Positions 591-47,229 of a stretch of DNA of 64,000 nt are shown in pieces. Location: assembly GCF_001677475.2 (NCBI RefSeq), contig NZ_CP015229.1. One strand, given 5' to 3'. A program made the position numbers and the translations under genes. The notes under the pieces were generated by a model, which saw nothing but the letters and a program-made list of their open reading frames with translations, was not told where the DNA came from and searched no databases. How positions within the stretch are numbered: position 1 is the stretch's first letter; every line of letters starts with the position of its first letter. This stretch comes from Escherichia coli (GTDB taxonomy: Bacteria; Pseudomonadota; Gammaproteobacteria; Enterobacterales; Enterobacteriaceae).

Positions 591-624
591 TTAAAAAAGG
601 CCTGACATTGCGCCAGGCCTTCTG
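591..624 (-). terminator. Putative intrinsic terminator downstream of aqpZ
   Basis: Inverted repeat aaggcctg/caggcctt at about 597..624 directly beyond the aqpZ stop, with an A-run on the plus strand (a U-run on the minus transcript). Confidence 0.5.
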
Positions 625-630
625 CGTTAA

Positions 631-1326
631 TTAATTACGCTTTTCCAGCAGGGTCCGGTAAATCAGACCACCGATAATGCCGCCGACAATTGGCACCACC
701 CAGAAGAACCACAGTTGTTCTAATGCCCAGCCGCCCTGGAAGATAGCAACCGCGGTGCTGCGCGCTGGGTTAACAGAAGTGTTAGTCACCGGAATACTGA
801 TTAAGTGAATCAGGGTTAAGGCCAGACCAATAGCGATCGGCGCAAAACCTGCTGGAGCGAATTTGTCGGTTGCGCCGTGGATCACCAACAGGAAACCTGC
901 ACTCAATACCAGTTCAACTACCAGCGCGGAAAGCATGGAATAACCGCCTGGTGAATGCTCGCCATAACCGTTAGAAGCAAAACCGCTGGCTGCCGCGTCA
1001 AAACCCGTTTTACCACTGGCAATTAAATACAGCAGCGCCGCTGCAACAATACCGCCGACAACCTGGGCAATTACGTAGCCAACGACTTCTTTTGCCGGGA
1101 AACGTCCGCCAGCCCATAAACCAATAGTGACCGCCGGGTTAAAATGACCACCAGAAATATGACCAACAGCGAAGGCCATCGTCAGAACGGTCAAACCAAA
1201 TGCCAGCGCCACGCCGGCAAAACCAATGCCTAATTCCGGGAAGCCTGCGGCCAGTACAGCACTACCACAGCCACCAAAAACAAGCCAGAAAGTACCAAAA
1301 CATTCAGCTGCTAATTTTCTGAACAT
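631..1326 (-). CDS. aqpZ: Aquaporin Z (MIP-family water channel)
   Basis: ORF 631..1332. Product has two NPA boxes (HFNPAVT, VNPARS) and a hydrophobic six-helix pattern. Start placed at the second Met (MFRKLAAE...) to give the 231-aa protein. Confidence 0.95.
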
Positions 1327-1751
1327 ATCCACCTCAATTAAAAATTGACCCTGTGAAAAATATGGTCGTTTTATAGGGTCGTCGTAAAAAAGTGACGACG
1401 GAAATAATGCGCGGCTATTTTAAAAACGAAGGCGAGTCATTCACCAGATAAATAAATCCAGTAAATTTGATTTAGGGCAACAGCGGGTTGTCCCATATAG
1501 TCATTTGTCTGATTGACAGTGTAGTGCAAGCGAAAGATTTAATCCTTTAGGCGTAATAAAAAATAATTTATCATGCTAATTATTTGATTTTGTTGTTTTT
1601 GCAGGCTTATCAGCAAGAGGGAGTATAACGCGATTATTCGCTCATTTTTCAGACATTTGCCATGCTTAAATGTGATGTCATCACGTATTAGCAAGGCCTT
1701 TCCCGTTATACTGCCAGCGTAAAGGATAAGTCACATATTTCTGGAGGGGAT

Positions 1752-11034: not shown

Positions 11035-11122
11035 GTTCACTGCCGTACAGGCAGCTTAGAAATTCACAGGTAACATACTCCACCCGCCCACCATGTTCAC
11101 TGCCGTACAGACAGATAAAATG
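11035..11122 (+). CRISPR. Orphan type I-F CRISPR remnant: two 28-bp repeats and one 32-bp spacer, no cas genes in the window
   Basis: Repeat 1 gttcactgccgtacaggcagcttagaaa (11035..11062); spacer ttcacaggtaacatactccacccgcccaccat (11063..11094); repeat 2 gttcactgccgtacagacagataaaatg (11095..11122), degenerate at its 3' end. The repeat matches the I-F (Ypest-type) consensus I recall. The clpA-infA interval is a known site of such arrays in E. coli. Confidence 0.8.
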
Positions 11123-11165: not shown

Positions 11166-11253
11166 TGGCGGTGAGGGGGGGATTCGAACCCCCGATACGT
11201 TGCCGTATACACACTTTCCAGGCGTGCTCCTTCAGCCACTCGGACACCTCACC
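11166..11253 (-). tRNA. serW: tRNA-Ser (anticodon GGA)
   Basis: Reverse complement reads GGTGAGGTGTCCGAGTGGCTGAAGGAGCACGCCTGGAAAGTGTGTATACGGCAACGTATCGGGGGTTCGAATCCCCCCCTCACCGCCA: acceptor stem, long variable arm typical of tRNA-Ser, T-arm GGTTCGAATCC, encoded CCA end. Confidence 0.9.
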
Positions 11254-25838: not shown

Positions 25839-25863
25839 TACCCAATTTTTCTGAATCTAAAAA

Positions 25864-25885
25864 GCGCCTGCGGGCGCTTTTTTTG
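25864..25885 (+). terminator. Intrinsic terminator downstream of serS
   Basis: gcgcc-tgcg-ggcgc hairpin immediately followed by ttttttt. Confidence 0.75.
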
Positions 25886-26076
25886 TCTCCCTTTGATACC
25901 GAACAATAATTACTCCTCACTTACACGTAATACTACTTTCGAGTGAAAATCTACCTATCTCTTTGATTTTCAAATTATTCGATGTATACAAACCTATATA
26001 GCGAGCTGCTATAGAAATAATTACACAATACGGTTTGTTACTGGAATCAATCGTGAGCAAGCTTGAGTGAGCCATT

Positions 26077-32347: not shown

Positions 32348-33778
32348 ATGGCTGGGAATGTTCAGGAAAAACAGCTGCGATGGTACAACATTGCGCTGAT
32401 GTCTTTTATCACTGTCTGGGGTTTTGGCAACGTTGTTAATAACTACGCCAACCAGGGGCTGGTGGTTGTTTTTTCATGGGTGTTTATCTTTGCGCTCTAT
32501 TTCACACCTTATGCGCTAATTGTTGGCCAGTTAGGCTCGACCTTCAAAGATGGGAAGGGCGGGGTCAGTACCTGGATTAAACACACGATGGGACCCGGAC
32601 TGGCTTACCTCGCCGCGTGGACCTACTGGGTAGTGCATATTCCCTATCTGGCACAAAAACCCCAGGCAATACTGATTGCGCTCGGTTGGGCGATGAAAGG
32701 CGACGGTTCGCTAATCAAAGAATATTCAGTCGTAGCGTTACAGGGGTTAACGCTGGTGCTGTTTATCTTCTTTATGTGGGTTGCTTCACGCGGTATGAAA
32801 TCGCTGAAAATCGTCGGTTCTGTGGCAGGGATTGCGATGTTTGTTATGTCGCTCCTGTATGTGGCGATGGCGGTAACCGCGCCTGCGATTACTGAAGTGC
32901 ATATTGCGACCACAAACATTACCTGGGAAACGTTCATTCCTCATATCGACTTTACCTACATTACCACTATTTCAATGCTGGTTTTCGCGGTTGGCGGAGC
33001 AGAGAAGATTTCTCCTTACGTTAATCAAACGCGCAACCCAGGAAAAGAATTTCCAAAAGGGATGTTATGCCTGGCGGTGATGGTTGCGGTTTGTGCCATT
33101 CTGGGCTCACTGGCGATGGGGATGATGTTTGACTCGCGTAATATCCCGGATGACTTAATGACTAACGGTCAGTATTACGCCTTTCAGAAGCTGGGCGAGT
33201 ATTACAACATGGGTAATACTTTAATGGTGATTTATGCCATTGCGAATACCCTGGGACAAGTAGCTGCGCTGGTATTCTCGATTGATGCACCGCTTAAAGT
33301 GTTATTAGGCGATGCCGACAGCAAATATATTCCAGCAAGTTTATGTCGTACCAACGCTTCTGGTACGCCCGTTAATGGCTATTTTCTGACCCTGGTGCTG
33401 GTGGCGATCCTGATAATGCTACCGACTCTCGGCATTGGTGATATGAACAATCTCTATAAATGGCTGTTGAATCTTAACTCGGTAGTGATGCCGCTGCGTT
33501 ATTTGTGGGTATTTGTTGCGTTTATTGCTGTCGTTCGCCTGGCGCAGAAATATAAACCAGAGTATGTCTTTATTCGTAATAAGCCGATGGCAATGACCGT
33601 CGGGATATGGTGTTTTGCCTTTACCGCTTTTGCATGCCTGACAGGAATTTTCCCTAAAATGGAAGCCTTCATTGCAGAGTGGACATTCCAATTGGCACTG
33701 AACATTACTACGCCATTTGTCCTCGTTGGACTGGGGCTGATATTCCCGCTGCTTGCACGTAAAACGAATACAAAATAG
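32348..33778 (+). CDS. ycaM: APC-family amino-acid/polyamine transporter YcaM
   Basis: ORF 32156..33778. Start taken at MAGNVQEKQLRWYNIALMSF (476 aa), preceded by aagga. Polytopic membrane protein. Confidence 0.88.
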   Translation: MAGNVQEKQLRWYNIALMSFITVWGFGNVVNNYANQGLVVVFSWVFIFALYFTPYALIVGQLGSTFKDGKGGVSTWIKHTMGPGLAYLAAWTYWVVHIPYLAQKPQAILIALGWAMKGDGSLIKEYSVVALQGLTLVLFIFFMWVASRGMKSLKIVGSVAGIAMFVMSLLYVAMAVTAPAITEVHIATTNITWETFIPHIDFTYITTISMLVFAVGGAEKISPYVNQTRNPGKEFPKGMLCLAVMVAVCAILGSLAMGMMFDSRNIPDDLMTNGQYYAFQKLGEYYNMGNTLMVIYAIANTLGQVAALVFSIDAPLKVLLGDADSKYIPASLCRTNASGTPVNGYFLTLVLVAILIMLPTLGIGDMNNLYKWLLNLNSVVMPLRYLWVFVAFIAVVRLAQKYKPEYVFIRNKPMAMTVGIWCFAFTAFACLTGIFPKMEAFIAEWTFQLALNITTPFVLVGLGLIFPLLARKTNTK

Positions 33779-33785
33779 TCATCAT

Positions 33786-33803
33786 GCCCCGGTTCGCCGG
33801 GGC
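33786..33803 (+). terminator. Hairpin just downstream of ycaM (weak terminator candidate)
   Basis: gccccgg-ttcg-ccggggc perfect inverted repeat 8 bp after the ycaM stop; no clear U-tract. Confidence 0.35.
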
Positions 33804-34875
33804 TGTGATATCAAATAGACTAAAATTAGATCAGGCCTGATAAGGCAAAAGTTAAGTTTTTCTTAAGAGATGAAAGAAAATCAACGCTACCGTGATAATA
33901 CGAATTTTAGTTATCGGAGACCATTATTTTTAGATATGGTGATAGTTTTAATTATTGGTTATTTTGCAAGTTATTATTTTGGGCTCTGGAGTAAACTCTT
34001 GCGCATAGTAATAACATGATTTTTACGGCTAAATTTTCAACAAAGATTGGTAATGTAAACTCGTATTTTTTGATTTGCATCAATGAATTCGCACGTTGCT
34101 AATTATGGTTAAATTTGCTGAGAATGATTGCGGTTATTGTTTGGATATGCAGATGGTATATTGATTCACTGGCGTAATATTCTGTAAAAATTATATTTTA
34201 TAGTGTTTTAATCTGGCAAAAATCATCTCCCGACAGAATCTTCTCATGCCTGGTGTAGTTCACAGTCTTTTGTTTTAAAAATAAAATAGTGCTCTAATGT
34301 TGCATCTATTGTTTTATCGAGCGTGTGTTCCTGAAAATATTTATCTGTTAGGTTGATGGACAAATTACAGCCTGGGCAGTGAAATTTTCACGATCACTTT
34401 CTGACTAAATCTTACTTTAAGGTTACTGATTAATATATTTGGGCTAAGAGAGTCGTATTACACATGTCTCAAAAAAGATAAATAAACAGAAAGGATTACT
34501 CACAATAGATACTAATAACACTTTTGGATAGTTATAGAGTAGAAGCCACGACTCAGCAGGATGTAGTAGCTGTGTTGTTATAAGTTAATTTTTTCATGGC
34601 TAAATTATTTCGTTGAAAAATTAACGAAAGGCGGTAGCGTGGGTGAAAGATACAAAATGAGTGTTACATATAACAATATTACCTTGGTTAAAATAGAATG
34701 AATGATAATCACCTGTGGAAATTAAGAAAAAAGTAATCTTCTCATCATGATATATTTTTTATATGGAATAGTGAAATTAATAAAATCATAAAGAGGAGAG
34801 CAACATCGTCTAATATACAGAACGTTATACGATATGATATGAAGCTATTAATAACATTTTAGTCAGAATACCAGT

Positions 34876-37224
34876 ATGTATAGCATTACCGAAAAATTAA
34901 ACTCAAGATTTAACACTGCGGTTATATTAGCTGTTACTGTCTATATTGTCTTGTCATTTATTACCGCAATTGATTTCCATAAAAAAATAGCAGAAAACTC
35001 TGCACAGATTAACCTTATACTCATCAATAACAATTTGAATAATTTTTTTTCTAAAGTTGAAAAAGAGGCTGATGCATTAAAAGATGCAATCTATCTGTTA
35101 CATGATGAAGATGAAATAAAGCGAGCAGTCCTTCATCGCATGAAAAAAATAGACGCGGTTAATTTAGTAGGGATAATGCTCAATAATGGAAAATATCTTA
35201 GCTTTATTCGAACTGAGAATGGGGAGGTAAAATTTCTGGGGCAATCAGAACCCGGTAAACCTTTTATTGGTGACGATGGTGATATCAGCGATAACTACTT
35301 TAATCCGGAATCACGCCCATGGAATAAATTACCGAGGGGGACTTATTCAAAATGGTCACCATGGTATAATTGTTATGGTATTGCCGGAAAAAAATGTTTT
35401 TCGTTTTCACTACGACCATCCGAAGAAGAAAAAAATTCATTTGCTTTGAAGTTAATACATCTGGATGTTGATGAAAAATATTTCAGTAATTTTTTAAATA
35501 AACTGGGTGGTGATTCTGATATTTTATTCATGGAACAAAACAAAAGGATTATGGTGGGTAATGAAAAATCAATGTTACATCTTATTGTCCGTGATTTATC
35601 GGGAAGTTATAACATAAGCAATAATAGTGGCAACTATACAGACAATGTTATCTCACTCCCCTGGCTTCCTGATGTCAGATTCCATTATTTCCACTATCAA
35701 AAATCAGAAGATACAAACATCAATAAATATTTTACACTGATGTTTTTATGTGGCTTGGTTTGTTTCTGTTTATTATGGTATATCGTTGAAAAAATAACAA
35801 GAAAAATCAAAGGTGAATCCAGCAAACTGATAGAACATCTGAAAAAATTAGCTAATTCAGTATATCGCAACGACACAATTGATATTGTGCAAAATGACAG
35901 TGGTGAGATTGTTGAACTCAAAAAGATCATTAATAATATCAGCGATAAATACAAGGAGCGTATGGACCGATTACTTAATCTTGTGTCCTATGAACAAGGA
36001 AGTTGCTTTTATATTAATAAGGCTATTATTGAAACTAATAATAAAACCTATTTGGCAATTGGTATGCTTTGCATCTATGGATTAGAGTTTGTTGAAGCGG
36101 TATATGGAAATCAGAAATTTCATGAGATTTTTAATGATATAAAATCTAAGATATCACAAAAATATTCAAAATATTGTGATATCGTAAAAATCTCAACTGA
36201 AACATACTTGTTGCTATGTCACACTGATTGCGAAGAGTTCATCGAAAAATTATCGGTTTTAAACTTTCCTGAACATATATTTTGCATAAGAAATATATAT
36301 ATCCACAAGATTGCCATTTGCGAAAATTTTTCAGGGGAAAATGTATCGATTTATGAAAGGAAACTGAAACTGGCATTAACAGCTATGCGGGAAAATAAAG
36401 AATCTGAATTTATTTTTTATGATGACATCAAAGTCCATGAACTTGATCAAAAGGTCTGGGTGGCAGGAAATATAAAAAAAGCGATTGCGAGTAATGAGCT
36501 TTATTTAGTATATCAACCGATTGTTGATATGGATAATAATAGGGTTGTAGGCGCAGAGGCGTTATGTCGCTGGTTGTCCTGCGAAAATGGGGTAATACCG
36601 CCATCAATTTTTGTACCTGTTGCTGAAGAAATAGGATTAATTAAAGAACTGGGTGATTTTGTTCTCGAAACAGCTATTAGCGAATTTGGGGTGTTTAGTT
36701 GTGAATATGAGGTTGCTAACGATTTTCTCCTGCATATCAATGTTTCTCCCTGGCAATTAAATGAATTTGACTTCCACACTCGTGTTCTTACTTTAATTAA
36801 TGCATTTGGTGTAAATGTTGAACAAATCTGCCTGGAGATCACCGAATCAGCAGTAAAAGATATAAATGATAGCTTTTACAATAATATAAATATTTTAAAA
36901 GAAAATGGTATCAAGATTTCCCTTGATGATTTCGGAAGTGGATTAGCTGACCTGAAAAAACTTTATAAAGTAAGACCTGATAGCATTAAAATTGATTCAG
37001 AGTTTACCTCTGGTATTTTCGATGAAACTAACAAGGTTGTATATTTTATATCCAATCTTGCTCGTGAAGAAAATATGCCGGTAATAGCTGAAGGTGTTGA
37101 AACTGAAAGTCAGGCTAGAGAGTTGCAAAAATTAGGATTTTCTCATGTTCAGGGATACTTATACCAGAAACCGTTACCGTTTTCAGAATGGCATATAGAC
37201 AACAAACCGAAAAAAAGAAAATAA
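34876..37224 (+). CDS. Membrane-bound c-di-GMP phosphodiesterase: TM, periplasmic sensor domain, TM, cytoplasmic linker region, EAL domain
   Basis: 782 aa. Hydrophobic helices near residues 15-35 and ~285-305. EAL-domain motifs all present: QPIVD, EALCRW, NVSP, LEITES, DDFGSG, KIDSEF, AEGVETE, QGYLY. No GG(D/E)EF signature upstream of the EAL domain. Confidence 0.85.
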   Translation: MYSITEKLNSRFNTAVILAVTVYIVLSFITAIDFHKKIAENSAQINLILINNNLNNFFSKVEKEADALKDAIYLLHDEDEIKRAVLHRMKKIDAVNLVGIMLNNGKYLSFIRTENGEVKFLGQSEPGKPFIGDDGDISDNYFNPESRPWNKLPRGTYSKWSPWYNCYGIAGKKCFSFSLRPSEEEKNSFALKLIHLDVDEKYFSNFLNKLGGDSDILFMEQNKRIMVGNEKSMLHLIVRDLSGSYNISNNSGNYTDNVISLPWLPDVRFHYFHYQKSEDTNINKYFTLMFLCGLVCFCLLWYIVEKITRKIKGESSKLIEHLKKLANSVYRNDTIDIVQNDSGEIVELKKIINNISDKYKERMDRLLNLVSYEQGSCFYINKAIIETNNKTYLAIGMLCIYGLEFVEAVYGNQKFHEIFNDIKSKISQKYSKYCDIVKISTETYLLLCHTDCEEFIEKLSVLNFPEHIFCIRNIYIHKIAICENFSGENVSIYERKLKLALTAMRENKESEFIFYDDIKVHELDQKVWVAGNIKKAIASNELYLVYQPIVDMDNNRVVGAEALCRWLSCENGVIPPSIFVPVAEEIGLIKELGDFVLETAISEFGVFSCEYEVANDFLLHINVSPWQLNEFDFHTRVLTLINAFGVNVEQICLEITESAVKDINDSFYNNINILKENGIKISLDDFGSGLADLKKLYKVRPDSIKIDSEFTSGIFDETNKVVYFISNLAREENMPVIAEGVETESQARELQKLGFSHVQGYLYQKPLPFSEWHIDNKPKKRK

Positions 37225-37228
37225 AGCA

Positions 37229-38569
37229 ATGTTCAAATATAAAAAAAAGGCGGCAGTGATCTGTTTTTTGTATTTTTTGTGCGTCGCTGTAGTAACTTGT
37301 TATTTGTACACCATTCATGTTAAAGGCCGTATAAATTCGGTGAAGGTATCTATTGTAGATAGTGGGCTTGCAATAGCTAATGTTTCTGAGTATCGCCGCT
37401 CAGTATCTAATAATATATTTTATGAACTTGAGGTTTCGCCAGAAGAGTTGTTAAAAAAAATACGCAATAGCTTTGCTGGCTATGAAAACCCTGGATATTT
37501 GTATGATCTCGGTCCTTATATGATTAGCGATGGTAAATGTATCAAAGTCACAACGAAAGGAGATAATTTTTGTGACGACATAGTTTCCTCTATTAGGGTA
37601 ATTAATGAATTTGAAAGAGGCATTATTAGCTTAAAAAATAAGTGCTATGTTTATTATGCTCATCCCATTGCAAAACGTACAAGTTTGATATCAGTGGTAG
37701 ATCCTGAACGTTATTTATCTTTGATAAGAAATCAATCAGGGGAACGAGAAGATATCTATGTATCATTTTATGATATTAATGATAATGAAAAGAAAATCGC
37801 AGGTGATGATTTTTTGATAAATGATGCAGTATTTGAGATGTCAGCTATCACTCTGTCGTATTCTTATCTTCCAGAAATGATGTTTATTGTTGCCTATAAA
37901 AAAAGTAAATATCTATATATATGTGCGTTTTTCGTTTTTGCATCGGCAATATCTGCAGTCATAATGTATGTTTATTATGTTAAATTATTGCGTGATATTA
38001 TAAATAAGGGTAGATTGGAAAAAGAATCTATATTGTCGAATCATCAATATGATTTACGTGGAGAAAATCTATTCTTTAATACGGAAGAGATTAATGCAAT
38101 TCGAGAGATATATGACTTTGGCACTTGTGATGCATTAACCAGGGCTTCTGGTCGCCGGAGTTTTGATAAAGAAATCAAGATACTGAGAAAAAATTTTGGC
38201 TACCTGTGTCTATTTGATGTGGATAAATTTAAAACCATTAATGATAAGTTTGGTCATTTATTTGGTGATGAAGTACTCATCAAACTTGTTAATATCATTA
38301 AAGAAGAGTTACCCCGTCGTGAAGGGGAAATATACCGGTTTGGCGGTGATGAGTTTGCTATTATTTATTATGAGAAAGATAAAAATAAGCTATCAAGAAT
38401 TTTGCACAGAGTTGTTCATTTCGCCATTGGTGGGTTAAATTGTAGTTGCAGTATAGGTGTTGCCAGCACAGATGAGTGCATGAATAACATTGAACGGTTG
38501 AAATTGCTGGCAGATGAACGGTTATATAAAAGTAAGCAAAATGGCCGAGCACAGATAACGTGGTGTTGA
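37229..38569 (+). CDS. Membrane-bound diguanylate cyclase: TM, periplasmic sensor domain, TM, GGDEF domain
   Basis: 446 aa, starting 5 bp after the upstream stop. Two hydrophobic helices flank a ~200-aa periplasmic segment. GGDEF-domain motifs: DALT..RR, LFDVDKFKTINDKFGH, GDEVL, RFGGDEFAIIY, ADERLYKSKQNGR. No RxxD inhibitory site immediately upstream of GGDEF. Confidence 0.85.
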   Translation: MFKYKKKAAVICFLYFLCVAVVTCYLYTIHVKGRINSVKVSIVDSGLAIANVSEYRRSVSNNIFYELEVSPEELLKKIRNSFAGYENPGYLYDLGPYMISDGKCIKVTTKGDNFCDDIVSSIRVINEFERGIISLKNKCYVYYAHPIAKRTSLISVVDPERYLSLIRNQSGEREDIYVSFYDINDNEKKIAGDDFLINDAVFEMSAITLSYSYLPEMMFIVAYKKSKYLYICAFFVFASAISAVIMYVYYVKLLRDIINKGRLEKESILSNHQYDLRGENLFFNTEEINAIREIYDFGTCDALTRASGRRSFDKEIKILRKNFGYLCLFDVDKFKTINDKFGHLFGDEVLIKLVNIIKEELPRREGEIYRFGGDEFAIIYYEKDKNKLSRILHRVVHFAIGGLNCSCSIGVASTDECMNNIERLKLLADERLYKSKQNGRAQITWC

Positions 38570-38653
38570 TATTTTAATTTGCATGGCATTGGTCATCGAT
38601 GTTTACAAAAATCACACAGTTCAAGTTATATTATTAATGAATCGTTAAGTGCA

Positions 38654-40768
38654 ATGCTCATAAAAAATAAAGTAATATTAAACAAAATCCTTTTGGTTGT
38701 TGCTATACTGCTATGTTTTGTTTTTTTATCAATTGTTGAACAGCCCCTTGGATTTTATCAACAAACATTATTTTCAATTATTATTTGTATCGCTGCTATC
38801 TTCCTTAATTTTCTCAAAGGAAGGATAATTACTCTGATTCTAATGGGTGTTGGAATACTCATATCATCCCGATATCTATGGTGGCGTTACTCTTCTTCAG
38901 TAATCCTGGATGAATTTCCAGACTGTTTATTTTCAGTCACGCTATTAGTTGCTGAGACGTATGCATGGTTTGTTTTATTACTTGGTTACTTTCAGGTTTG
39001 CTTCCCGCTGAACCGAGAAAGTATACCCTTACCAGAGAATAAAGAAGAATGGCCCGTTGTTGATATATTAATCCCCACATATAACGAACCCTTTACAGTC
39101 GTTAAGAATACAGTTTATGGTGCGTTGGCCTTAGACTGGCCAACGGATAAATTAAATATCTGGCTCCTTGATGATGGCGCCAGGGACGAGTTCAGGAAAT
39201 TCGCGAACGAGTTAGGTATTTACTATGTCGCAAGAGAAACACATGAACATGCTAAGGCCGGAAATATAAATAATGCGCTTAAAATAGCTAATGGCGAATT
39301 TGTTGCTATTTTCGATTGCGATCATATACCCTCGGTTTCTTTTTTAAAGAAAACGATGGGCTGGTTTATCGCCGATAAAAAATTATCGATGTTGCAAACA
39401 CCACATCATTTTTTTTCCCCCGACCCTTTTGAGCGAAATTTGGGGCAGTTTCGGCAAAAGCCAAATGAAGGACACCTTTTTTATGGGTTAATCCAGAATG
39501 GTACGGATACATGGAATGCTTCATTTTTTTGTGGTTCATGTGCAATCATCCGTAGATCTGCTCTGGATGAGGTTGGAGGCATTGCAGTCGAAACAGTAAC
39601 AGAAGATGCGCATACGTCGTTACGCTTGCATCGTGCAGGTTATAGCTCTGCGTATCTTCGCTATCCTCTGGCTGCCGGGCTAGCCACCGAAACATTGTCT
39701 GCTCATATTGGACAACGGATTCGGTGGGCTCGAGGCATGATTCAAATCTTGCGTATTGACAATCCATTATTGGGCAAGGGGCTGACATTATCACAGCGCC
39801 TTTGCTATCTCAGCAGCATGATGCATTTTTTATCAGGTGTGCCACGCCTGATTTTCTTGTTCGCACCGTTATGTCCTATTTTCTTTTCGGTCAATCTGAT
39901 CGATGCATCAGTTGCAGATATTATGTCTTATGTTTTACCTTATCTATTTGTTATTATTTTAACTAATTCAAGAGTACAAGGTAAATACAGACATTCATTC
40001 TGGAATGAGATTTATGAAATGGTTCTGGCCTGGTATATTACGCTACCAACGCTTGTAGCTTTACTTGCGCCAGCAAAAGGTCGTTTTAACGTTACGGCCA
40101 AAGGGGGACTGATAAAAAATAAGTTTGTTGACTGGCGAATTTCCTATCCCTATCTTATTTTTGCTATTTTAAATGTAATCGGGCTGATAATAGGTGTTAT
40201 TAATGTTTATAGTTTGCAAGGGCATATTGCCATCTTGAATTTGTTTTGTTTAATCTGGTTGTTTTATAACGCAATTATTATTGGCGCAACTTTGGCTGTT
40301 TCTATTGAACAAAAGCAGGTGCGTTTTTCTCCCCGTATTGATGTTTCTTTCAAGGGCGTTATACAACTGGATGATGGACGGCGCTATCCTTGTTCTGTTC
40401 TTGATTTTTCCGAAGGAGGATTAGGTGTAATCCTTGATAATATCTCCGACGTAAAAGATATGCTTAAAGCACAGCAATTGTCTCTTTATCTGGATGATAG
40501 CAACGGGAAATGTGATATTCCGGTAGAAATAGTTCATGCTTACAATAATAAAATTGGTCTGAAGATTATGCCAATGAGTTATGAACAAAGTGTTAATTAT
40601 GTAAGAGCAACGTTTTCTCGTGATTCATTATGGCAAGAGTGGAATAATAAAATTAGACGGGACAATATTCTAAAGAGTTTTTTTGAAATATGTTTCATCT
40701 CTCTGAAAGGTTATTGCAATATGGTTTTTTATATTCTGCGGACACTGAAAAGCAGTTCCAAAAGTTAG
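38654..40768 (+). CDS. BcsA-like family-2 processive beta-glycosyltransferase with C-terminal PilZ domain (c-di-GMP-gated synthase)
   Basis: ORF 38579..40768 begins with TTG; first in-frame ATG is at 38654 (704 aa). Catalytic motifs: DDGARDE, FDCDH, QTPHHFFSPDPFERN, FFCGSCA, TEDAHTSLRLH, QRIRWARG. PilZ motifs RFSPRID and DFSEGGLG. Confidence 0.85.
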   Translation: MLIKNKVILNKILLVVAILLCFVFLSIVEQPLGFYQQTLFSIIICIAAIFLNFLKGRIITLILMGVGILISSRYLWWRYSSSVILDEFPDCLFSVTLLVAETYAWFVLLLGYFQVCFPLNRESIPLPENKEEWPVVDILIPTYNEPFTVVKNTVYGALALDWPTDKLNIWLLDDGARDEFRKFANELGIYYVARETHEHAKAGNINNALKIANGEFVAIFDCDHIPSVSFLKKTMGWFIADKKLSMLQTPHHFFSPDPFERNLGQFRQKPNEGHLFYGLIQNGTDTWNASFFCGSCAIIRRSALDEVGGIAVETVTEDAHTSLRLHRAGYSSAYLRYPLAAGLATETLSAHIGQRIRWARGMIQILRIDNPLLGKGLTLSQRLCYLSSMMHFLSGVPRLIFLFAPLCPIFFSVNLIDASVADIMSYVLPYLFVIILTNSRVQGKYRHSFWNEIYEMVLAWYITLPTLVALLAPAKGRFNVTAKGGLIKNKFVDWRISYPYLIFAILNVIGLIIGVINVYSLQGHIAILNLFCLIWLFYNAIIIGATLAVSIEQKQVRFSPRIDVSFKGVIQLDDGRRYPCSVLDFSEGGLGVILDNISDVKDMLKAQQLSLYLDDSNGKCDIPVEIVHAYNNKIGLKIMPMSYEQSVNYVRATFSRDSLWQEWNNKIRRDNILKSFFEICFISLKGYCNMVFYILRTLKSSSKS

Positions 40769-40833
40769 TTCTAATTTCTGACTGCTAATTAAATATATTG
40801 TTTGTGTTTATTATGGTTGTTGAATTTTTTAAA

Positions 40834-43134
40834 ATGGAAAGAAAATTTTTGAGATTAAGTGCTGCGATAATTGGCTTGGGGTTATTATGTTTTTACCAGG
40901 CAAATACAGCATCGGCTACAGATACAGTAACCAGTAAGTCTTCCTCTGGAGAAGTATTACCATCTATCCAGAAGACAAATATCTCTGCTTATGAGAAAGA
41001 GTCGTCTCGCCATTTTAAACTCCCATTTACACAAATCGCACCAGCTCCAGGAAACATAGTCCTGAATGGCGTTAACCCACAGGGGCAAATTGAGTTTGGT
41101 ATGCGTAGCGATGAAATAGTATCAGAAGCAAAACTAAAACTTGAATACACTACATCACCGTCGCTGATCCCTGTCCAGTCACAGCTTAAGGTCTATCTTA
41201 ATGACGAGTTGATGGGGGTATTGCCGATTACCAAAGAACAACTGGGGAAGAAAACGCTGGCGGAAATAACTCTTAACCCATTGTATTTTTCTGATTTTAA
41301 TCGCTTGCGCCTCGAATTAATTAGTCACTACCAGAGCGCCTGTGAAAACCCGACCAGCAGCAATTTGTGGCTTGATATTGGACGTACCAGTGAACTTGAA
41401 CTGGTATTTCAGAGACTTAATCTGAAAAATGATCTTTCATATTTTCCTGTACCGTTTTTTGACCCGCGAGATAACCGCACTAATACATTGCCGATGGTTT
41501 TTGCAGGTACTCCTGAGACTGGTTTGCAGCAGGCATCAGCTATTGTCGCTTCGTGGTTTGGTGCGCAATCTGGCTGGCGTGGTCACCGATTTCCGGTTTT
41601 CTATAACCAGTTACCGGAAAGTAATGCAGTGGTCTTTGCCACTAACAATAGACGCCCGGACTTTCTGCGCGAGCATCCGTTGGTGAATGCGCCTGTTATT
41701 AAAATGATCAGTCATCCACAAAATCCTTTTATCAAATTGCTGGTACTTTTGGGCCGCGATGACAAAGATTTATTACAGGCGGCAAAAGGCCTTGCACAGG
41801 GAAATATACTTTTTCGCGGCGATAGTGTGATCGTAAATGAAGTGACGCCGTTACTGCCGCGTAAACCTTATGATGCGCCAAACTGGGTACGCACTGACCG
41901 TCCTGTAACTTTCGCAGAGCTTAAAAATTATGAAGGGCAGTTACAGGCAAGTGGCCTGGAGTCTGCGGCAATTAATGTTTCATTTAATTTGCCACCTGAT
42001 CTTTTTCTATTGCGTAATCGTGGGGTTGATATGAAGATTAACTATCGCTATACCACGCCAACGATAGGTGGTTCACGCATGGATGTCAGCCTTAATAACC
42101 AGTACCTTGAATCTTTCCGGCTAAGTCCGCAATCTGCTACCGATAGATTGTTGTTACGTTTACCGTTATTGCAAGAATTGTTGGATGGTAATAATGGAAT
42201 TACCATTCCTGCGCTGACGTTGGGGGCGCTTAATCAATTGCGATTTAATTTTGAGTACATTAATACAATGCCGCGTTCTGATGCTGATAGCTGTATTATT
42301 TCCAGGCCTCTAAAAAATCATGCGGTTATTGCAGATGATTCCACTATCGATTTTTCAAAGTACCATCACTTTATCGCAATGCCAGATTTACGCGCTTTTG
42401 CCAGCTCAGGCTTTCCATTTAGCCGCATGGCCGATCTATCAGAAACGGTTGTGGTTATGCCTGAAAATCCTGGTACAACGCAAGTTGAAACATTATTAAA
42501 TACCCTTGGACTGATTGGTGCTCAAACTGGATTTCCGGCAATTAATCTGACAATTACTGATGATATAGGTTCTGTCCAGGGTAAGGATTCAGATATTCTG
42601 CTTATAGGAACACTTCCGCAAGAATTTGCAGATAAACAGCAAATTAATCTGCTCATTGAGGCAACAACGAGTTGGGTAAAAAGCCCAATGCGGAACACTG
42701 ATTACGCAAAAATTATGGCAGATAAAAACGATCAAAAACCTGAAATACAAACAACTATAAATTCCCCATTGCCAATGGCGGCGATAGTTGGTTTTCAGTC
42801 CCCATATCATGCCCAACGTAGCGTAATTGCTTTAATGTCCGAGGGATCACGCGGCGATACGCTACTCAACAATGCGTTAATTAATAGTACAAAACGCGGC
42901 AATATTTTTGGTTCAGTCGCGGTTATTCGCGAATCTGGCGTCAATAGTTTACAGGTTGGAGATACTTATTACGTTGGGCATCTCCCCTGGATTGAACGAG
43001 TGCAATATGTGTTAGCCAGACACCCCATTCTACTGGCAGTCCTGGCAACTCTCAGTGTGGTGCTATTGGCGTGGGTAGTATGGCGTCTGTTACGTAACAT
43101 TAGTCGCCGTCGTCTGAACCCTCATCAACAGTAA
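40834..43134 (+). CDS. BcsB-like periplasmic synthase subunit with C-terminal membrane anchor
   Basis: ORF 40798..43134 begins with TTG; start taken at MERKFLRLSAAIIGLGLLCFYQANTASA (signal-peptide-like). C-terminal single TM helix ILLAVLATLSVVLLAWVVWRLL followed by basic residues, as in BcsB. Confidence 0.8.
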   Translation: MERKFLRLSAAIIGLGLLCFYQANTASATDTVTSKSSSGEVLPSIQKTNISAYEKESSRHFKLPFTQIAPAPGNIVLNGVNPQGQIEFGMRSDEIVSEAKLKLEYTTSPSLIPVQSQLKVYLNDELMGVLPITKEQLGKKTLAEITLNPLYFSDFNRLRLELISHYQSACENPTSSNLWLDIGRTSELELVFQRLNLKNDLSYFPVPFFDPRDNRTNTLPMVFAGTPETGLQQASAIVASWFGAQSGWRGHRFPVFYNQLPESNAVVFATNNRRPDFLREHPLVNAPVIKMISHPQNPFIKLLVLLGRDDKDLLQAAKGLAQGNILFRGDSVIVNEVTPLLPRKPYDAPNWVRTDRPVTFAELKNYEGQLQASGLESAAINVSFNLPPDLFLLRNRGVDMKINYRYTTPTIGGSRMDVSLNNQYLESFRLSPQSATDRLLLRLPLLQELLDGNNGITIPALTLGALNQLRFNFEYINTMPRSDADSCIISRPLKNHAVIADDSTIDFSKYHHFIAMPDLRAFASSGFPFSRMADLSETVVVMPENPGTTQVETLLNTLGLIGAQTGFPAINLTITDDIGSVQGKDSDILLIGTLPQEFADKQQINLLIEATTSWVKSPMRNTDYAKIMADKNDQKPEIQTTINSPLPMAAIVGFQSPYHAQRSVIALMSEGSRGDTLLNNALINSTKRGNIFGSVAVIRESGVNSLQVGDTYYVGHLPWIERVQYVLARHPILLAVLATLSVVLLAWVVWRLLRNISRRRLNPHQQ

Positions 43135-43246
43135 TTCATCATCATTTCTATTTTGCGGCTCCATTCTGTCCTGACTTTATACAGGCAGGGAGCTGCGCCC
43201 GTTCTGTTTTTAATAAAAAGTGAGTTAACACCTGATTGAGGCAGGC

Positions 43247-46200
43247 ATGTACAAATTCACCCTAAATTTACTCACAATATCCCTTGGTTTGGCGGTAATG
43301 TCGATGGCGAAAGCCACACCAACTGTACACAAGCTGTTAATGGCGCAGATTCGGTTAGGCGAAGACATTCATCGTGAAGATCTGGTCGAACAGTCGCTTT
43401 ATCGTCTTGAATTGGCGGAACCTGATAATCCAGATGTCGTTGCGGCGCGTTTTCGCTATCTGCTGCGTAAGGGGGATATTGAAGGTGCGCAAAAACAACT
43501 TGCCAGACTTTCCCTGTTCGCTCCTGATTCAAAAATATATAAAGCATCGCGCACGGCCATGCGACTTTCTTCGCCTGAGGGGCGTCAGGCACTGCAAATG
43601 GCACGCTTACAAGCTATCTCCGGGCGACATAAAGAGGCTATCGACAGTTACGACAAGCTATTTAACGGGGCACCGCCAGATATCGAAATGGCGCTGGAAT
43701 ACTGGGGGGCAATGACGCAAATTTCCTCCCGTCGCAACGAAGCGATTCGTCAGTTGAAAATACTTAATATTGATAATCCTGACTCTGGTGCCATATTTGG
43801 GGCGCTGGGGCAGGCGTATTCCCAGAATGGCGATCGCGCTAATGCGGTGGCGAATCTGGAAAAAGCCCTCGCACTGGATCCGCACAGCAGCAACAACGAC
43901 AAATGGAACAGTCTGCTGAAGGTGAATCGCTACTGGCTGGCGATCCAGCAGGGCGATGCTGCGCTGAAAGCCAATAATCCTGACCGCGCAGAGCGTCTGT
44001 TCCAGCAGGCGCGCAATGTCGATAACGCCGACAGCTATGCGGTGCTGGGGCTGGGCGATGTGGCGATGGCGCGCAAAGATTACCCCGCCGCCGAACGTTA
44101 TTATCAGCAGACGCTGCGTATGGACAGCGGCAACACCAACGCCGTGCGCGGGCTGGCGAATCTTTATCGCCAGCAGTCGCCGGAAAAAGCCGAAGCGTTT
44201 ATTGCCTCGCTCTCTGCCAGCCAGCGGCGCAGCGTTGATGACATCGAACGCAGCCTGCAAAACACGCGTTTATCACAGCAGGCAGAGGCACTGGAAAATC
44301 AGGGTAAATGGGCGCAGGCGGCAGCACTTCAGCGCCAGCGACTGGCGCTCGATCCCGGCAGTGTGTGGATTACTTACCGGCTTTCGCAGGATCTCTGGCA
44401 GGCCGGACAACGCAGCCAGGCCGATACGTTAATGCGCCATCTGGCGCAGCAGAAGCCGAACGACCCGGAGCAGGTTTACGCTTACGGGCTGTATCTCTCT
44501 GGTCATGACCAGGACAGAGCGGCGCTGGCGCATATCAACAGCCTGCCGCGCGCGCAATGGAACAGCAATATTCAGGAGCTGGTTAATCGACTGCAAAGCG
44601 ATCAGGTGCTGGAAACCGCTAATCGCCTGCGAGAAAGCGGCAAAGAAGCTGAAGCGGAAGCGATGCTGCGCCAACAACCACCTTCCACGCGTATTGATCT
44701 CACGCTGGCTGACTGGGCGCAACAACGACGTGATTATACCGCCGCCCGCGCTGCATATCAGAATGTCCTGATGCGGGAGCCAACTAACGCCGATGCCATT
44801 CTTGGTCTGACGGAAGTGGATATTGCTGCCGGTGACAAAGCGGCAGCACGTAGCCAGCTGGCGAAACTGCCTGCCACCGATAACGCGTCGCTGAACACTC
44901 AGCGGCGCGTGGCGCTGGCACAGGCGCAGCTTGGCGATACCGCAGCGGCGCAGCAGACGTTTAATAAGTTGATCCCGCAGGCAAAATCTCAGCCGCCGTC
45001 GATGGAAAGCGCGATGGTGCTGCGCGACGGTGCGAAGTTTGAAGCGCAGGCGGGCGATCCAAAGCAGGCGCTGGAAACCTACAAAGACGCCATGGTCGCA
45101 TCCGGTGTGACTACGACGCGTCCGCAGGATAACGACACCTTTACCCGACTGACCCGTAACGATGAGAAAGATGACTGGCTGAAGCGCGGTGTGCGCAGCG
45201 ACGCGGCAGATCTCTATCGTCAGCAGGATCTTAACGTCACCCTTGAGCACGACTACTGGGGATCGAGTGGCACCGGTGGTTACTCCGACCTGAAAGCGCA
45301 CACTACCATGTTGCAGGTGGATGCTCCGTATTCTGACGGGAGGATGTTCTTTCGCAGTGATTTCGTCAATATGAACGTCGGCAGTTTCTCCACTAATGCC
45401 GATGGCAAATGGGATGACAACTGGGGCACCTGTACATTACAGGACTGTAGTGGCAACCGCAGCCAGTCGGACTCCGGTGCCAGCGTGGCGGTCGGCTGGC
45501 GAAATGACGTCTGGAGCTGGGATATCGGTACCACGCCGATGGGCTTCAACGTGGTGGATGTGGTCGGCGGCATCAGTTACAGCGATGATATCGGGCCGCT
45601 GGGTTACACCGTTAACGCCCACCGTCGGCCCATCTCCAGTTCTTTGCTGGCCTTTGGTGGGCAAAAAGACTCTCCGGGCAATACCGGGAAAAAATGGGGT
45701 GGCGTGCGTGCCGACGGCGTGGGGCTAAGCCTGAGCTACGATAAAGGTGAAGCAAACGGCGTCTGGGCATCGCTTAGCGGTGACCAGTTAACCGGTAAAA
45801 ATGTCGAAGATAACTGGCGCGTGCGCTGGATGACGGGCTATTACTATAAGGTCATTAACCAGAACAATCGCCGCGTCACAATCGGCCTGAACAACATGAT
45901 CTGGCATTACGACAAAGATCTGAGTGGCTACTCACTCGGTCAGGGCGGTTACTACAGTCCGCAGGAATACCTGTCGTTTGCCATACCGGTGATGTGGCGG
46001 GAGCGCACGGAAAACTGGTCGTGGGAGCTGGGTGCATCTGGCTCGTGGTCGCATTCGCGCACCAAAACCATGCCGCGTTATCCGCTGATGAACCTGATCC
46101 CGACGGACTGGAAAGAGGATGCCGCCAGCCAGACCAACGACGGCGGCAGCAGTCAGGGCTTTGGCTACACGGCGCGGGCGTTACTTGAGCGTCGCGTCAC

Positions 46201-46354
46201 GTCCAACTGGTTTGTCGGCACGGCGATTGATATCCAGCAGGCGAAAGATTATGCGCCAAGCCATTTCCTGCTCTACGTGCGGTATTCCGCCGCCGGATGG
46301 CAGGGCGACATGGATTTACCGCCGCAGCCGCTGATACCTTACGCCGACTGGTAA
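43247..46354 (+). CDS. BcsC-like outer-membrane export component (signal peptide, TPR repeats, C-terminal beta-barrel)
   Basis: 1035 aa. Signal peptide MYKFTLNLLTISLGLAVMSMAKA; SD gaggcagg upstream. Many TPR-like repeats (e.g. GALGQAYSQNGDRANAVANLEKALALDP); C-terminal Gly/aromatic-rich region ending in W (...LIPYADW). GC content rises sharply after the first ~0.6 kb. Confidence 0.85.
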   Translation: MYKFTLNLLTISLGLAVMSMAKATPTVHKLLMAQIRLGEDIHREDLVEQSLYRLELAEPDNPDVVAARFRYLLRKGDIEGAQKQLARLSLFAPDSKIYKASRTAMRLSSPEGRQALQMARLQAISGRHKEAIDSYDKLFNGAPPDIEMALEYWGAMTQISSRRNEAIRQLKILNIDNPDSGAIFGALGQAYSQNGDRANAVANLEKALALDPHSSNNDKWNSLLKVNRYWLAIQQGDAALKANNPDRAERLFQQARNVDNADSYAVLGLGDVAMARKDYPAAERYYQQTLRMDSGNTNAVRGLANLYRQQSPEKAEAFIASLSASQRRSVDDIERSLQNTRLSQQAEALENQGKWAQAAALQRQRLALDPGSVWITYRLSQDLWQAGQRSQADTLMRHLAQQKPNDPEQVYAYGLYLSGHDQDRAALAHINSLPRAQWNSNIQELVNRLQSDQVLETANRLRESGKEAEAEAMLRQQPPSTRIDLTLADWAQQRRDYTAARAAYQNVLMREPTNADAILGLTEVDIAAGDKAAARSQLAKLPATDNASLNTQRRVALAQAQLGDTAAAQQTFNKLIPQAKSQPPSMESAMVLRDGAKFEAQAGDPKQALETYKDAMVASGVTTTRPQDNDTFTRLTRNDEKDDWLKRGVRSDAADLYRQQDLNVTLEHDYWGSSGTGGYSDLKAHTTMLQVDAPYSDGRMFFRSDFVNMNVGSFSTNADGKWDDNWGTCTLQDCSGNRSQSDSGASVAVGWRNDVWSWDIGTTPMGFNVVDVVGGISYSDDIGPLGYTVNAHRRPISSSLLAFGGQKDSPGNTGKKWGGVRADGVGLSLSYDKGEANGVWASLSGDQLTGKNVEDNWRVRWMTGYYYKVINQNNRRVTIGLNNMIWHYDKDLSGYSLGQGGYYSPQEYLSFAIPVMWRERTENWSWELGASGSWSHSRTKTMPRYPLMNLIPTDWKEDAASQTNDGGSSQGFGYTARALLERRVTSNWFVGTAIDIQQAKDYAPSHFLLYVRYSAAGWQGDMDLPPQPLIPYADW

Positions 46355-46395
46355 TGAGGTAGAATCAGAAGGTTAAAACTCGGAAATTAAATCCA

Positions 46396-46438
46396 GTAAA
46401 TCAGCGTCGAGCATGTTCTTAACGCTGATTTACTTTTT
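46396..46438 (+). terminator. Intrinsic terminator after the BcsC-like gene (may also serve convergent pflA)
   Basis: gtaaatcagcgt...acgctgatttac inverted repeat followed by ttttt, 42 bp after the stop at 46354. Confidence 0.65.
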
Positions 46439-46488
46439 ACTACTAAAGGAAGGGGTGGCAGGTCGGAATTCAGCCTGCACATGATGTT

Positions 46489-47229
46489 TTAGAACATCAC
46501 TTTATGACCATATTGCTCAAGAATCCCTTTCACTCGCTCCATGGTTTCTTTTTTCGGTGGTTTCACACCGTCGAGTTTGTACTCTTCGCCCATCGCCACC
46601 CACTTATGTTTGCCTAACTCATGGTAGGGGAGGAGCTCGATTTTTTCGACGTTACCCATATCGCGAGTAAATTCACCGAGGCGATGAGCTGAATCGTCAT
46701 CGTCAGACCAGCCAGGTACTACGACATAACGTATCCAGACTTTCACATTTTTGTTCGCCAGATATTTAGCAAACTCGAGTGTACGATGGTTGGAAACGCC
46801 TACCAGATTCTGGTGGATTTCGTCGTTCATCTGTTTGAGATCGAGCATTACCAGGTCGGTCACTTCCAGAAGTTCATCAATTACTGGATCGTAACGACGA
46901 ACAAAACCGTTAGTGTCCAGACAGGTATGAATGCCTTCTTTTTTGCAGGCGCGGAACCAGTCGCGAACGAACTCGGCTTGCAGGATTGCTTCACCACCGG
47001 ATGCGGTAACGCCGCCGCCGGAAGCGTTCATAAAGTGGCGATAGGTCACCACTTCCTTCATTAAATCTTCAACGGTAACTTCTTTACCGCCATGCGTATC
47101 CCAGGTGTCGCGGTTATGACAATACAGGCAGCGCATCAGGCAGCCCTGGAAAAAGGTGATAAAGCGAATACCCGGGCCGTCTACGGTTCCACAGGATTCA
47201 AAGGAGTGAATGCGACCAATAACTGACAT
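46489..47229 (-). CDS. pflA: Pyruvate formate-lyase activating enzyme (radical SAM)
   Basis: ORF 46489..47256. Start taken at [23 protein letters not shown] (246 aa). Radical-SAM CxxxCxxC motif ([12 protein letters not shown]). Confidence 0.95.

Follow-up and report, generated by a model that had tools for sequence, protein, structure and literature searches.

A probable accessory cellulose synthase of the BcsA3 class in a five-gene island of Escherichia coli

We analysed a stretch of 64,000 nucleotides of Escherichia coli DNA (the window) and found that its bcsA gene at 38654..40768 (+ strand) probably codes for a working accessory cellulose synthase, one of the BcsA3 class that is restricted to Escherichia (probability roughly 0.8, judged from sequence). 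The protein would be the catalytic subunit of a self-contained island of pdeI-like, dgcI-like, bcsA, bcsB and bcsC genes, and most likely the island forms a BcsAB(C) machine of its own that is gated by c-di-GMP. The finding as such is already known: the exact protein is annotated in NCBI (EFI6951894.1 and others, named cellulose synthase), RefSeq names the genes, and a preprint describes the BcsA3 class (Hosseinpourlamardi, Labiba, Li, Dadvar and Romling, 2025; bioRxiv 10.1101/2025.05.09.653004).

Gene, motifs and membrane layout

The open reading frame of bcsA occupies positions 38579-40768 (+) and encodes 729 aa if begun at TTG or 704 aa from the first ATG, so both lengths given in the initial annotation are borne out. 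We discarded the TTG start, since the stretch between TTG and ATG contains in-frame stop codons in strains N3 and E7-1N7, in E. marmotae and in E. ruysiae. Given these stops in four other alleles, and given that PGAP chose the equivalent ATG in N3, the real start is the ATG at 38654.

The glycosyltransferase motifs of island BcsA are DDGARDE (residues 173-179), FDCDH (220-224), QTPHHFFSPDPFERN (248-262), TEDAHTSLRLH (316-326) and QRIRWARG (354-361), and the PilZ motifs are RFSPR (557-561) and DFSEGG (584-589). Every motif quoted in the initial annotation could be located, and we noted HAKAGN (199-204), FFCGS (291-295) and the gating-loop sequence FNVTAK (478-483) in addition. The catalytic residues are those of DDG (173-175), DCD (221-223), TED (316-318) and QRIRW (354-358). 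We aligned eight sequences, namely five chromosomal alleles, the plasmid-borne BcsA2 and two core BcsA1 proteins, and all eight agree at every residue for catalysis, acceptor binding, the gating loop and PilZ. There is no substitution at the catalytic D,D,D,QxxRW positions or at the PilZ arginines, where a misreading would have told against the original interpretation. Island BcsA also retains a glutamate eight residues upstream of QRIRW; in the C. sphaeroides structures, this residue pairs with the first arginine of PilZ while the enzyme is auto-inhibited.

Pfam recognizes GT2 families and PilZ in the protein. The GT2 catalytic domain (Glyco_tranf_2_3, residues 136-361, containing DDG, DCD, TED and QRIRW) lies at 39059..39736 (+), and the PilZ domain (residues 555-646, containing RFSPR and DFSEGG; E = 1.2e-10) at 40316..40591 (+). 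Hydrophobic peaks occur at residues 7-25, 38-56, 58-76, 92-113, 392-436, 453-474 and 500-543. Because the first 19-residue peak is at residues 7-25, the protein starts at its first membrane helix, in agreement with the earlier remark that it begins directly with the transmembrane region. The layout is thus four N-terminal membrane helices, GT2, further helices with the gating loop, and PilZ. The earlier phrase "reduced to the catalytic core" describes the protein badly, since the full membrane channel, the gating loop and PilZ are all kept.

Island BcsA scores 1012 bits against NCBIfam NF008558 (curated cut-off 992) and 844.2 against TIGR03030 (cut-off 699.1). The match to BcsA lies far beyond what chance would give. 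Neither the identity of the product, as the initial annotation held, nor its linkage can be read from the sequence, and the enzyme might make another beta-glucan, such as a mixed-linkage beta-1,3/1,4-glucan (as BgsA) or a curdlan-like beta-1,3-glucan (as CrdS). The overall identity to BcsA1 is only 52%, and proteins proposed to be cellulose synthases could in some cases form mixed-linkage glucans, as the preprint points out (bioRxiv 10.1101/2025.05.09.653004). However, the protein passes the BcsA equivalog cut-offs with no other glucan-synthase model near, its GT core shares 70-85% identity with E. coli BcsA1 in 60-residue windows, PilZ is present, and bona fide BcsB and BcsC follow. To our knowledge, BgsA and CrdS have neither PilZ nor BcsB/BcsC partners, a description that does not fit island BcsA. 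We therefore regard a different glucan as very improbable.

The island and its neighbouring genes

The island consists of five genes between ycaM and pflA, where it replaces ycaN-ycaK of K-12. The genes encode, in order, a PdeI-like phosphodiesterase, a DgcI-like diguanylate cyclase, BcsA, BcsB and BcsC, bcsA being the third. The GC content of the island is 32-38%, which suggests that it may be silenced under laboratory conditions.

The left end is a non-coding, AT-rich stretch (33779..34875, no strand assigned; 31.7% GC) that we presume to be a promoter or regulatory region. All ORFs in this 1.1-kb spacer are at most 49 aa long and none is convincing, and its identity to the E7-1N7 allele falls from about 98% to about 73%. 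A promoter/terminator scan of the island gave 33 promoter-like sites, compared with 34.4 expected from shuffled sequence. An Rfam scan of the whole window returned no match to a c-di-GMP riboswitch or other known RNA at 33.7-46.6 kb.

The first gene (34876..37224, +) encodes a PdeI (YliE)-like membrane phosphodiesterase of 782 aa with a CHASE9 periplasmic sensor (residues 35-150, E = 7e-42), a degenerate middle and an EAL domain (532-766, E = 8.5e-65). Its translation shows EAL, DDFGSG and EGVET motifs. The second gene (37229..38569, +) encodes a DgcI (YliF)-like diguanylate cyclase of 446 aa with a GAPES2 periplasmic sensor (26-232, E = 5.5e-41) and a GGDEF domain (300-441, E = 1.8e-24). This protein reads RREGEIYRFGGDEF; its GGDEF motif is intact, and it has no inhibitory site of the RxxD type.

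Downstream of bcsA, bcsB (40834..43134, +) encodes 766 aa from ATG, or 778 aa from a TTG at 40798; the equivalent of the ATG is used by PGAP in N3. The product carries a signal peptide, and its C-terminal membrane anchor is conserved. The protein scores 1188.6 bits against NCBIfam NF008325 (cut-off 922). It is 65.8% identical to core BcsB, and over the last 70 residues it hardly differs from the core protein.

The island bcsC is a chimera with core bcsC. Its 5′ part (43247..43774, +), which encodes the signal peptide and first TPR repeats, is island-specific and has about 70% DNA identity to core bcsC. The 3′ part (43799..46354, +) encodes TPR repeats and the outer-membrane barrel, has 58% GC and about 95% DNA identity to the core gene, and is preceded in the junction alignment by a 366-nt gap relative to that gene. 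In a megablast search, query positions 553-3108 of bcsC matched about 5,400 genomes at 94-95%. The BcsC protein scores 1892 against NCBIfam NF008520 (cut-off 858), with query residues 178-1035 corresponding to model positions 300-1157. We searched species-representative genomes for exact matches to a conserved 33-mer of bcsC and obtained only three loci, namely the core genes of E. albertii and of Escherichia sp. MOD1-EC7003 and the island of E. coli E69; the core bcsC of E. marmotae was not among them. We also considered conversion tracts that decay within bcsA and bcsB toward bcsC, and rejected them: the BcsA profile follows domain conservation and that of BcsB is flat at about 70%. The main text of the preprint mentions neither the chimeric bcsC nor the ycaM-pflA site nor E. 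marmotae and E. ruysiae.

The core-like regions raise the question of whether the short synthase plugs into the core Bcs machinery (BcsZ, BcsRQ, BcsE/F and even BcsG), so that the island would be an alternative catalytic module. Since the 3′ 82% of island bcsC is about 95% identical to core bcsC in DNA, the outer-membrane end is effectively of the core type. The nearly core-identical membrane anchor of BcsB would fit such an arrangement, because this anchor contacts BcsF in the core complex (PMC11470070). The island also lacks bcsZ, bcsQ and bcsR, and BcsRQ have been described as indispensable for secretion by the core system of E. coli (PMC11470070). By contrast, the elements on which BcsG docks are absent from island BcsA, and the PilZ and C-terminal regions contacted by BcsR/BcsQ are its most diverged parts (18-43% identity to BcsA1 per 60-residue window). 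Moreover, carriers with a deleted core bcs1 cluster have been reported (bioRxiv 10.1101/2025.05.09.653004). We consider the use of core components in this way unlikely, and we favour a self-contained machine.

Distribution, selection and origin

We counted 9 carriers of the island among 5,426 complete E. coli chromosomes. In E. marmotae and E. ruysiae, too, the five genes lie in this arrangement at the same site. For bcsA, dN/dS is 0.08-0.12 between alleles that are 6-14% apart in DNA, which indicates a working gene. Across all five island genes, dN/dS is 0.05-0.25, and dS between alleles reaches 0.8.

Could the island nonetheless be a decaying or silent relic that yields no polymer in present hosts? 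Its rarity in E. coli would be in line with decay, as would several carriers in which the match is split and IS1 or IS3 transposases are annotated inside. The sequence cluster of island BcsA includes truncated proteins (e.g., 392 aa in KTE strains), and the bcsC copy of E. marmotae CP056165.1 has an internal stop. The absence of bcsZ, bcsQ and bcsR, the very AT-rich DNA and the lack of a strong Shine-Dalgarno sequence ahead of the bcsA ATG point the same way. However, the window, N3, E7-1N7 and the metagenome L008 all have intact copies of the five genes. The low dN/dS values persist over deep allelic divergence, the functional motifs are all invariant, and the exact BcsA protein is present on at least 23 contigs, the sampled ones being mostly from draft NCBI assemblies. 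On balance, a relic appears quite improbable, and we retain the reading of a functional synthase.

The E. coli copies of the island look introgressed from cryptic Escherichia clades, an observation that is also absent from the main text of the preprint. The idea that the E7-1N7-type allele is the E. marmotae allele was rejected, for the distance between these two (84% identity in DNA, 88% in protein) equals the distance of each to the window.

Taking these features together, we tentatively propose a joint reading, to which we give somewhat less than even odds. The bcs3 island could be an old resident of cryptic Escherichia (E. marmotae and E. ruysiae) at ycaM-pflA rather than a stray horizontal acquisition, and it may reach E. 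coli by homologous recombination in which it replaces ycaN-ycaK. Repeated gene conversion from core bcsC might keep the island bcsC matched to its host. The island would then be a minimal BcsABC system of natural origin that has its own c-di-GMP switch and adds unmodified cellulose to the phosphoethanolamine cellulose that the core system makes.

Proposed mechanism and product

The original proposal of a catalytically competent, c-di-GMP-gated synthase is in line with the invariant residues, the dN/dS values and the adjoining BcsB, from which we infer both competence and c-di-GMP binding. The mechanism that we outline here is drawn by homology with the solved BcsA-BcsB structures of C. sphaeroides and E. 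coli. GT2 would add glucose from UDP-glucose to a beta-1,4-glucan by means of the DDG, DCD and TED aspartates and QRIRW. The glucan chain would pass through BcsA's own membrane channel, stabilized by the membrane anchor of BcsB, and BcsC would carry it over the outer membrane. In the resting state, the gating loop (FNVTAK), held by the first PilZ arginine, is predicted to shut the active site, and c-di-GMP bound at RFSPR and DFSEGG would free the loop. The cyclase and phosphodiesterase of the island, each with a periplasmic sensor domain, probably supply and remove c-di-GMP locally.

In the core system, the N-terminal domain of BcsA1 recruits three copies of BcsG and packs against a C-terminal amphipathic hairpin (PMC11470070). 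Island BcsA lacks this N-terminal domain and part of the hairpin. Since the N-terminal domain and the end of the hairpin, which together hold the three BcsG copies, are absent, no phosphoethanolamine modification is expected. BcsG should not dock, and the product is probably plain, unmodified cellulose.

If the island is active, its carriers could make two celluloses, one phosphoethanolamine-modified by the core system and one plain under a separate, sensor-controlled c-di-GMP switch, and this could alter the properties of biofilms and how well cells survive outside the host. The idea of two celluloses is not new, having been raised before (bioRxiv 10.1101/2025.05.09.653004). Island BcsA is also a natural deletion of both BcsG-holding segments, and is useful for asking what these segments contribute.

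Comparison with known systems

E. coli BcsA1 (7LBY, 9FMV, 9B8V) has 872 aa, compared with 704 aa for island BcsA. In the pairwise alignment, which had been suggested as a check, residues 154-830 of BcsA1 match residues 15-694 of the island protein (E = 2.5e-259), and all motifs are identical. Identity is 41.7% over the full BcsA1 length. Conservation is lowest in the PilZ and C-terminal segments. The multiple alignment shows that island BcsA lacks about 142 residues from the N-terminus of BcsA1 and 33 from its C-terminus, which agrees with the long N-terminal extension that the initial annotation gave for an E. coli BcsA of about 870 aa. The GC content of bcsA is 38% in the island and 55% in the core locus. 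Unlike the core locus, the island has no bcsR, Q, Z, E, F or G near bcsA. E. coli-type (type II) Bcs systems, which make phosphoethanolamine cellulose, are characterized by the N-terminal domain and C-terminal hairpin of BcsA and by bcsE/F/G/R/Q in the cluster; island BcsA does not have the complete pair of segments, and only five genes lie between ycaM and pflA.

The PdeI/DgcI pair of K-12 has the same order, lengths and domains (CHASE9-EAL and GAPES2-GGDEF) as the pair in the island. K-12 PdeI (782 aa) is 40% identical to the island protein over 775 residues, and K-12 DgcI (442 aa) is 42% identical over 445 residues. The island pair differs in being joined to a bcs operon and in its GC content (33%, compared with 42-44% for the K-12 pair).

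The Cereibacter sphaeroides BcsA (4HG6) has the same minimal layout as island BcsA, starting at the first membrane helix and continuing with GT2, gating loop and PilZ. Its residues 19-626 match residues 12-599 of the island protein (E = 5.8e-109), an alignment that takes in its PilZ domain only partly; 4P00 matches at E = 6e-109, and 4P02 and 5EJ1 are other BcsA-BcsB entries from this organism. This alignment, also called for at the outset, places RAAPR opposite RFSPR with both RxxxR arginines in register, and DxSxxG lines up as well. Differences are an insertion of about 19 residues after DDG in the C. sphaeroides protein and a much lower identity to island BcsA. The identity of island BcsA to solved structures is enough to settle its fold.

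The plasmid-borne BcsA2 (WP_074014783.1, plasmid A of E. coli S56) is likewise a short form (701 aa) with the same motifs, and is 72% identical to island BcsA. Its cluster has bcsB after bcsA, remnants of EAL and GGDEF genes before it, a bcsZ remnant, and a full-length bcsC (1,157 aa) with 98-99% identity to the core gene. This cluster is broken by an IS3 transposase, a group II intron and an IS200 element. None of the papers that we found reports an experiment on BcsA2 or BcsA3; the preprint tested only a bcs4 strain.

The closest known system is the BcsA3 class itself. The preprint that reports the classes BcsA2-4 (bioRxiv 10.1101/2025.05.09.653004) interprets them as we interpret island BcsA. 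It describes BcsA3 as a protein of about 700 aa without the N-terminus (about 150 residues) and C-terminus (about 30 residues) of BcsA1. BcsA2-4 have an intact processive GT2 signature and the PilZ motifs RxxxR and DxSxxG, and their identity to BcsA1 is given as 41% for BcsA3 and 43% for BcsA2. The bcs3 locus is a chromosomal bcsABC cluster beside YliE/YliF homologues, found only in Escherichia. We assigned island BcsA to this class by shared features, rather than by alignment to the representative HDP8224287.1: the size, the missing termini, the motifs, the YliE/YliF-like neighbours and the identity to BcsA1 (41.7%, compared with 41%) all agree, and nothing essential differs.

The short BcsA synthase

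The bcsA reading frame (38579-40768, plus strand) gives 729 aa counted from a TTG and 704 aa counted from the ATG at 38654, and both lengths in the initial annotation match the ORF list and the translation. The ATG at 38654 is the true start, since four other alleles have in-frame stops between the TTG and the ATG, and since PGAP uses the equivalent ATG in strain N3, another E. coli carrier. The first hydrophobic segment comprises residues 7-25; the protein therefore begins at its first membrane helix, as had been noticed. Every motif quoted previously is present in the translation, as are HAKAGN, FFCGS and the gating-loop sequence FNVTAK, which had not been listed.

The protein matches GT2 families and, at residues 555-646, the PilZ domain of Pfam. 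It scores above the curated cut-offs of both NCBIfam models for BcsA (1012 versus 992 for NF008558, and 844 versus 699 for TIGR03030). Residues 15-694 align with residues 154-830 of E. coli BcsA (7LBY, 9B8V, 9FMV; E = 2.5e-259), and residues 12-599 with residues 19-626 of Cereibacter sphaeroides BcsA (4HG6; E = 5.8e-109). In the latter alignment, the RxxxR motif RAAPR pairs with RFSPR of the island protein, and DASTSG pairs with DFSEGG. We also aligned five chromosomal alleles with the plasmid-borne form BcsA2 and with BcsA1, the core synthase, of E. coli and E. albertii; none of the catalytic, acceptor, gating-loop or PilZ motifs varies among the eight sequences.

BcsA1 has about 142 residues at its N-terminus and 33 at its C-terminus that have no counterpart in the short proteins. 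Over the aligned part it is 52% identical to the island BcsA, with 70-85% in the glycosyltransferase core but 18-43% in the PilZ and C-terminal part. The earlier description of a protein reduced to the catalytic core is inaccurate, because the membrane channel and the PilZ domain are complete, in the layout of the C. sphaeroides enzyme. The observation of a short BcsA synthase is itself confirmed.

Genes and setting of the island

The gene under study, bcsA (38654-40768), comes third in an AT-rich block of five genes, all in the same orientation. It is preceded by genes for a 782-aa CHASE9-EAL protein (34876-37224), with 40% identity to K-12 PdeI along its whole length, and a 446-aa GAPES2-GGDEF protein (37229-38569), 42% identical to K-12 DgcI. 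Downstream lie bcsB (40834-43134), whose product is 66% identical to core BcsB with a conserved membrane anchor, and bcsC (43247-46354; 1,035 aa, NCBIfam NF008520). We saw none of bcsZ, bcsQ, bcsR, bcsE, bcsF and bcsG in the block. Its flanks are E. coli-like (97.6-98.2% identity), and it occupies the ycaM-pflA interval, which holds ycaN and ycaK in K-12.

Along the operon (34876-46354), identity to the core paralogues climbs from PdeI and DgcI through BcsA (52%) and BcsB to the two parts of BcsC, in step with GC, which rises steadily through 0.33, 0.33, 0.38, 0.43, 0.48 and 0.58 along the block. It is unusual that BcsB is closer than BcsA to its respective core copy. No identity gradient was seen within individual island genes.

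The island diguanylate cyclase (37229-38569) has an intact GGDEF motif. At the RxxD feedback-inhibition position it has RREG, where K-12 DgcI has VDKG, so product inhibition is probably absent in both cyclases.

Distribution and origin

Among 5,426 complete E. coli genomes, the block has a match in only 10. Nine of these matches are chromosomal and each covers at least 80% of the block; N3 and GF43 carry it at 94.6% identity, the remaining seven at about 85%. The tenth is a partial match on a plasmid (74%). The island adjoins pflA in all three carriers inspected (N3, E7-1N7 and E69). In a search of 5.8 billion proteins, short relatives formed just three clusters, all from Escherichia, followed by enterobacterial BcsA proteins of 865-874 aa with identity down to 52-56%. 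NCBI already has the identical 704-aa protein under the name "UDP-forming cellulose synthase catalytic subunit" (EFI6951894.1 and others). It occurs on at least 23 contigs, and most of those sampled come from draft NCBI assemblies.

E. marmotae (CP056165.1) and E. ruysiae carry the five-gene island at this same site. Compared with E. ruysiae, the left flank of the window is 85-90% identical and the island 93-98%; the N3 and E. ruysiae islands are 95-98% identical. Given that the island is closer to E. ruysiae than the left flank is, the E. coli copies seem to stem from exchange with E. ruysiae-like lineages and not from vertical inheritance, and the pattern points to recent exchange. By contrast, island (80-91%) and left flank (82-90%) are about equally diverged from E. 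marmotae, which fits long residence in that species.

At least three deeply diverged island alleles exist: one shared by the window, N3 and E. ruysiae, one of the E7-1N7 type and one of the E. marmotae type. The three types have about 85% DNA identity and dS of 0.55-0.8 (window 33300-46800 compared with loci L001 and L003). Within E. coli, diverged alleles differing by 5-20% sit in flanks that are 98-100% identical, and the divergence reaches past the island, to the 3′ end of ycaM on one side and to pflA (dS 0.37) on the other.

Composition of bcsC

Judged from its sequence, the island bcsC (43247-46354) is a mosaic, or chimera. Over its first 528 nt, identity to core bcsC is about 70% (55-75% per 60-residue window of the protein). 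The gene then skips 366 nt of the core sequence, and its last 2.55 kb match the core bcsC of some 5,400 E. coli genomes at about 95% (91-100% per 60-residue window). The alleles of the window, N3 and E7-1N7 share the junction. In E7-1N7, however, the 3′ part reaches just 88% identity, both with the window and with the core gene of E. coli, and the 3′ part in the window has patches of 97-100% identity beside patches of 89-92%. Together, these features suggest gene conversion from the resident core bcsC after the alleles split, in a comparison made against the core bcsC of E. coli.

Proposed mechanism and function

By homology, BcsA and BcsB would form an inner-membrane synthase-translocase that c-di-GMP opens via PilZ and the gating loop, and BcsC would be the way out through the outer membrane. 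The neighbouring cyclase and phosphodiesterase, each linked to a sensor, could plausibly make and remove c-di-GMP for this system alone. An N-terminal domain specific to E. coli BcsA recruits three copies of BcsG and packs against a C-terminal amphipathic hairpin (PMC11470070). The island BcsA has neither element and so probably makes cellulose without modification, also where the host carries bcsEFG.

Allele pairs with dS of 0.18-0.8 give dN/dS ratios of 0.08-0.12 for bcsA and 0.05-0.25 across all five island genes. This low ratio and the invariant motifs argue for a working enzyme. The sequence evidence supports the proposal of a competent, c-di-GMP-gated synthase. Against a working enzyme, the island is without bcsZ, bcsQ and bcsR, three genes of importance to the core system (PMC11470070), truncated forms occur within the same protein cluster, and the match is split in some carriers with IS transposases annotated inside. 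Such two-piece matches occur in E. coli GF43, SCU-172, MSB1_4I and others, with an IS3-family or IS1A transposase within, and the island may be interrupted in these lineages. One E. marmotae bcsC (CP056165.1, locus L009, 14601-17708) also has an internal stop, and no bcsC gene is called there; a metagenome copy (L008) has an intact bcsC of 1,035 aa.

Other features of the window

A minimal orphan CRISPR array (11035-11122 and 11169-11253) consists of two repeats (GTTCACTGCCGTACAGGCAG...) at a spacing of 60 nt. The first repeat matches Rfam CRISPR-DR4, and a minus-strand tRNA gene directly adjoins the array. It resembles a known remnant of a type I-F array that lies close to clpA-infA in E. coli. 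In the serS-dmsA region there is a full-length match to STnc130, a small RNA of enterobacteria (25852-25986, minus strand; 140 bits, E = 4e-23).

Comparison with known BcsA classes

The feature is already known and annotated. A 2025 preprint (bioRxiv 10.1101/2025.05.09.653004) describes classes BcsA2-4, which are without the N-terminus (~150 residues) and C-terminus (~30 residues) of BcsA1 and retain the membrane helices, GT2 signature and PilZ motifs. According to the same preprint, BcsA2 and BcsA3 are confined to Escherichia, the bcs2 and bcs3 clusters on chromosomes have YliE- and YliF-like genes next to them, BcsC groups with BcsA in the trees, and a bare bcsABC cluster suggests unmodified cellulose for which BcsG is not needed. 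Its main text mentions neither chimera, recombination, E. marmotae nor E. ruysiae; the bcsC mosaic and a cryptic-clade origin are modest leads.

The plasmid BcsA2 cluster (S56 plasmid A, 7065-22627) seems to have been assembled piecemeal. Its EAL and GGDEF genes are in fragments, and it includes remnants of type II secretion genes, an IS3 element, bcsA and bcsB. After these come a group II intron, an IS200 transposase, 126 nt left over from bcsZ, and a bcsC of full length and core type, with 98-99% identity to the core gene.

The window protein is 72% identical to the preprint's BcsA2 representative from this plasmid (WP_074014783.1), and it groups with the chromosomal alleles at 88-98% identity. 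Counted over the full length of BcsA1, it is 41.7% identical to that protein, which matches the preprint's figure of 41% for BcsA3. On these grounds we file it as a probable BcsA3, the short chromosomal class represented by HDP8224287.1.
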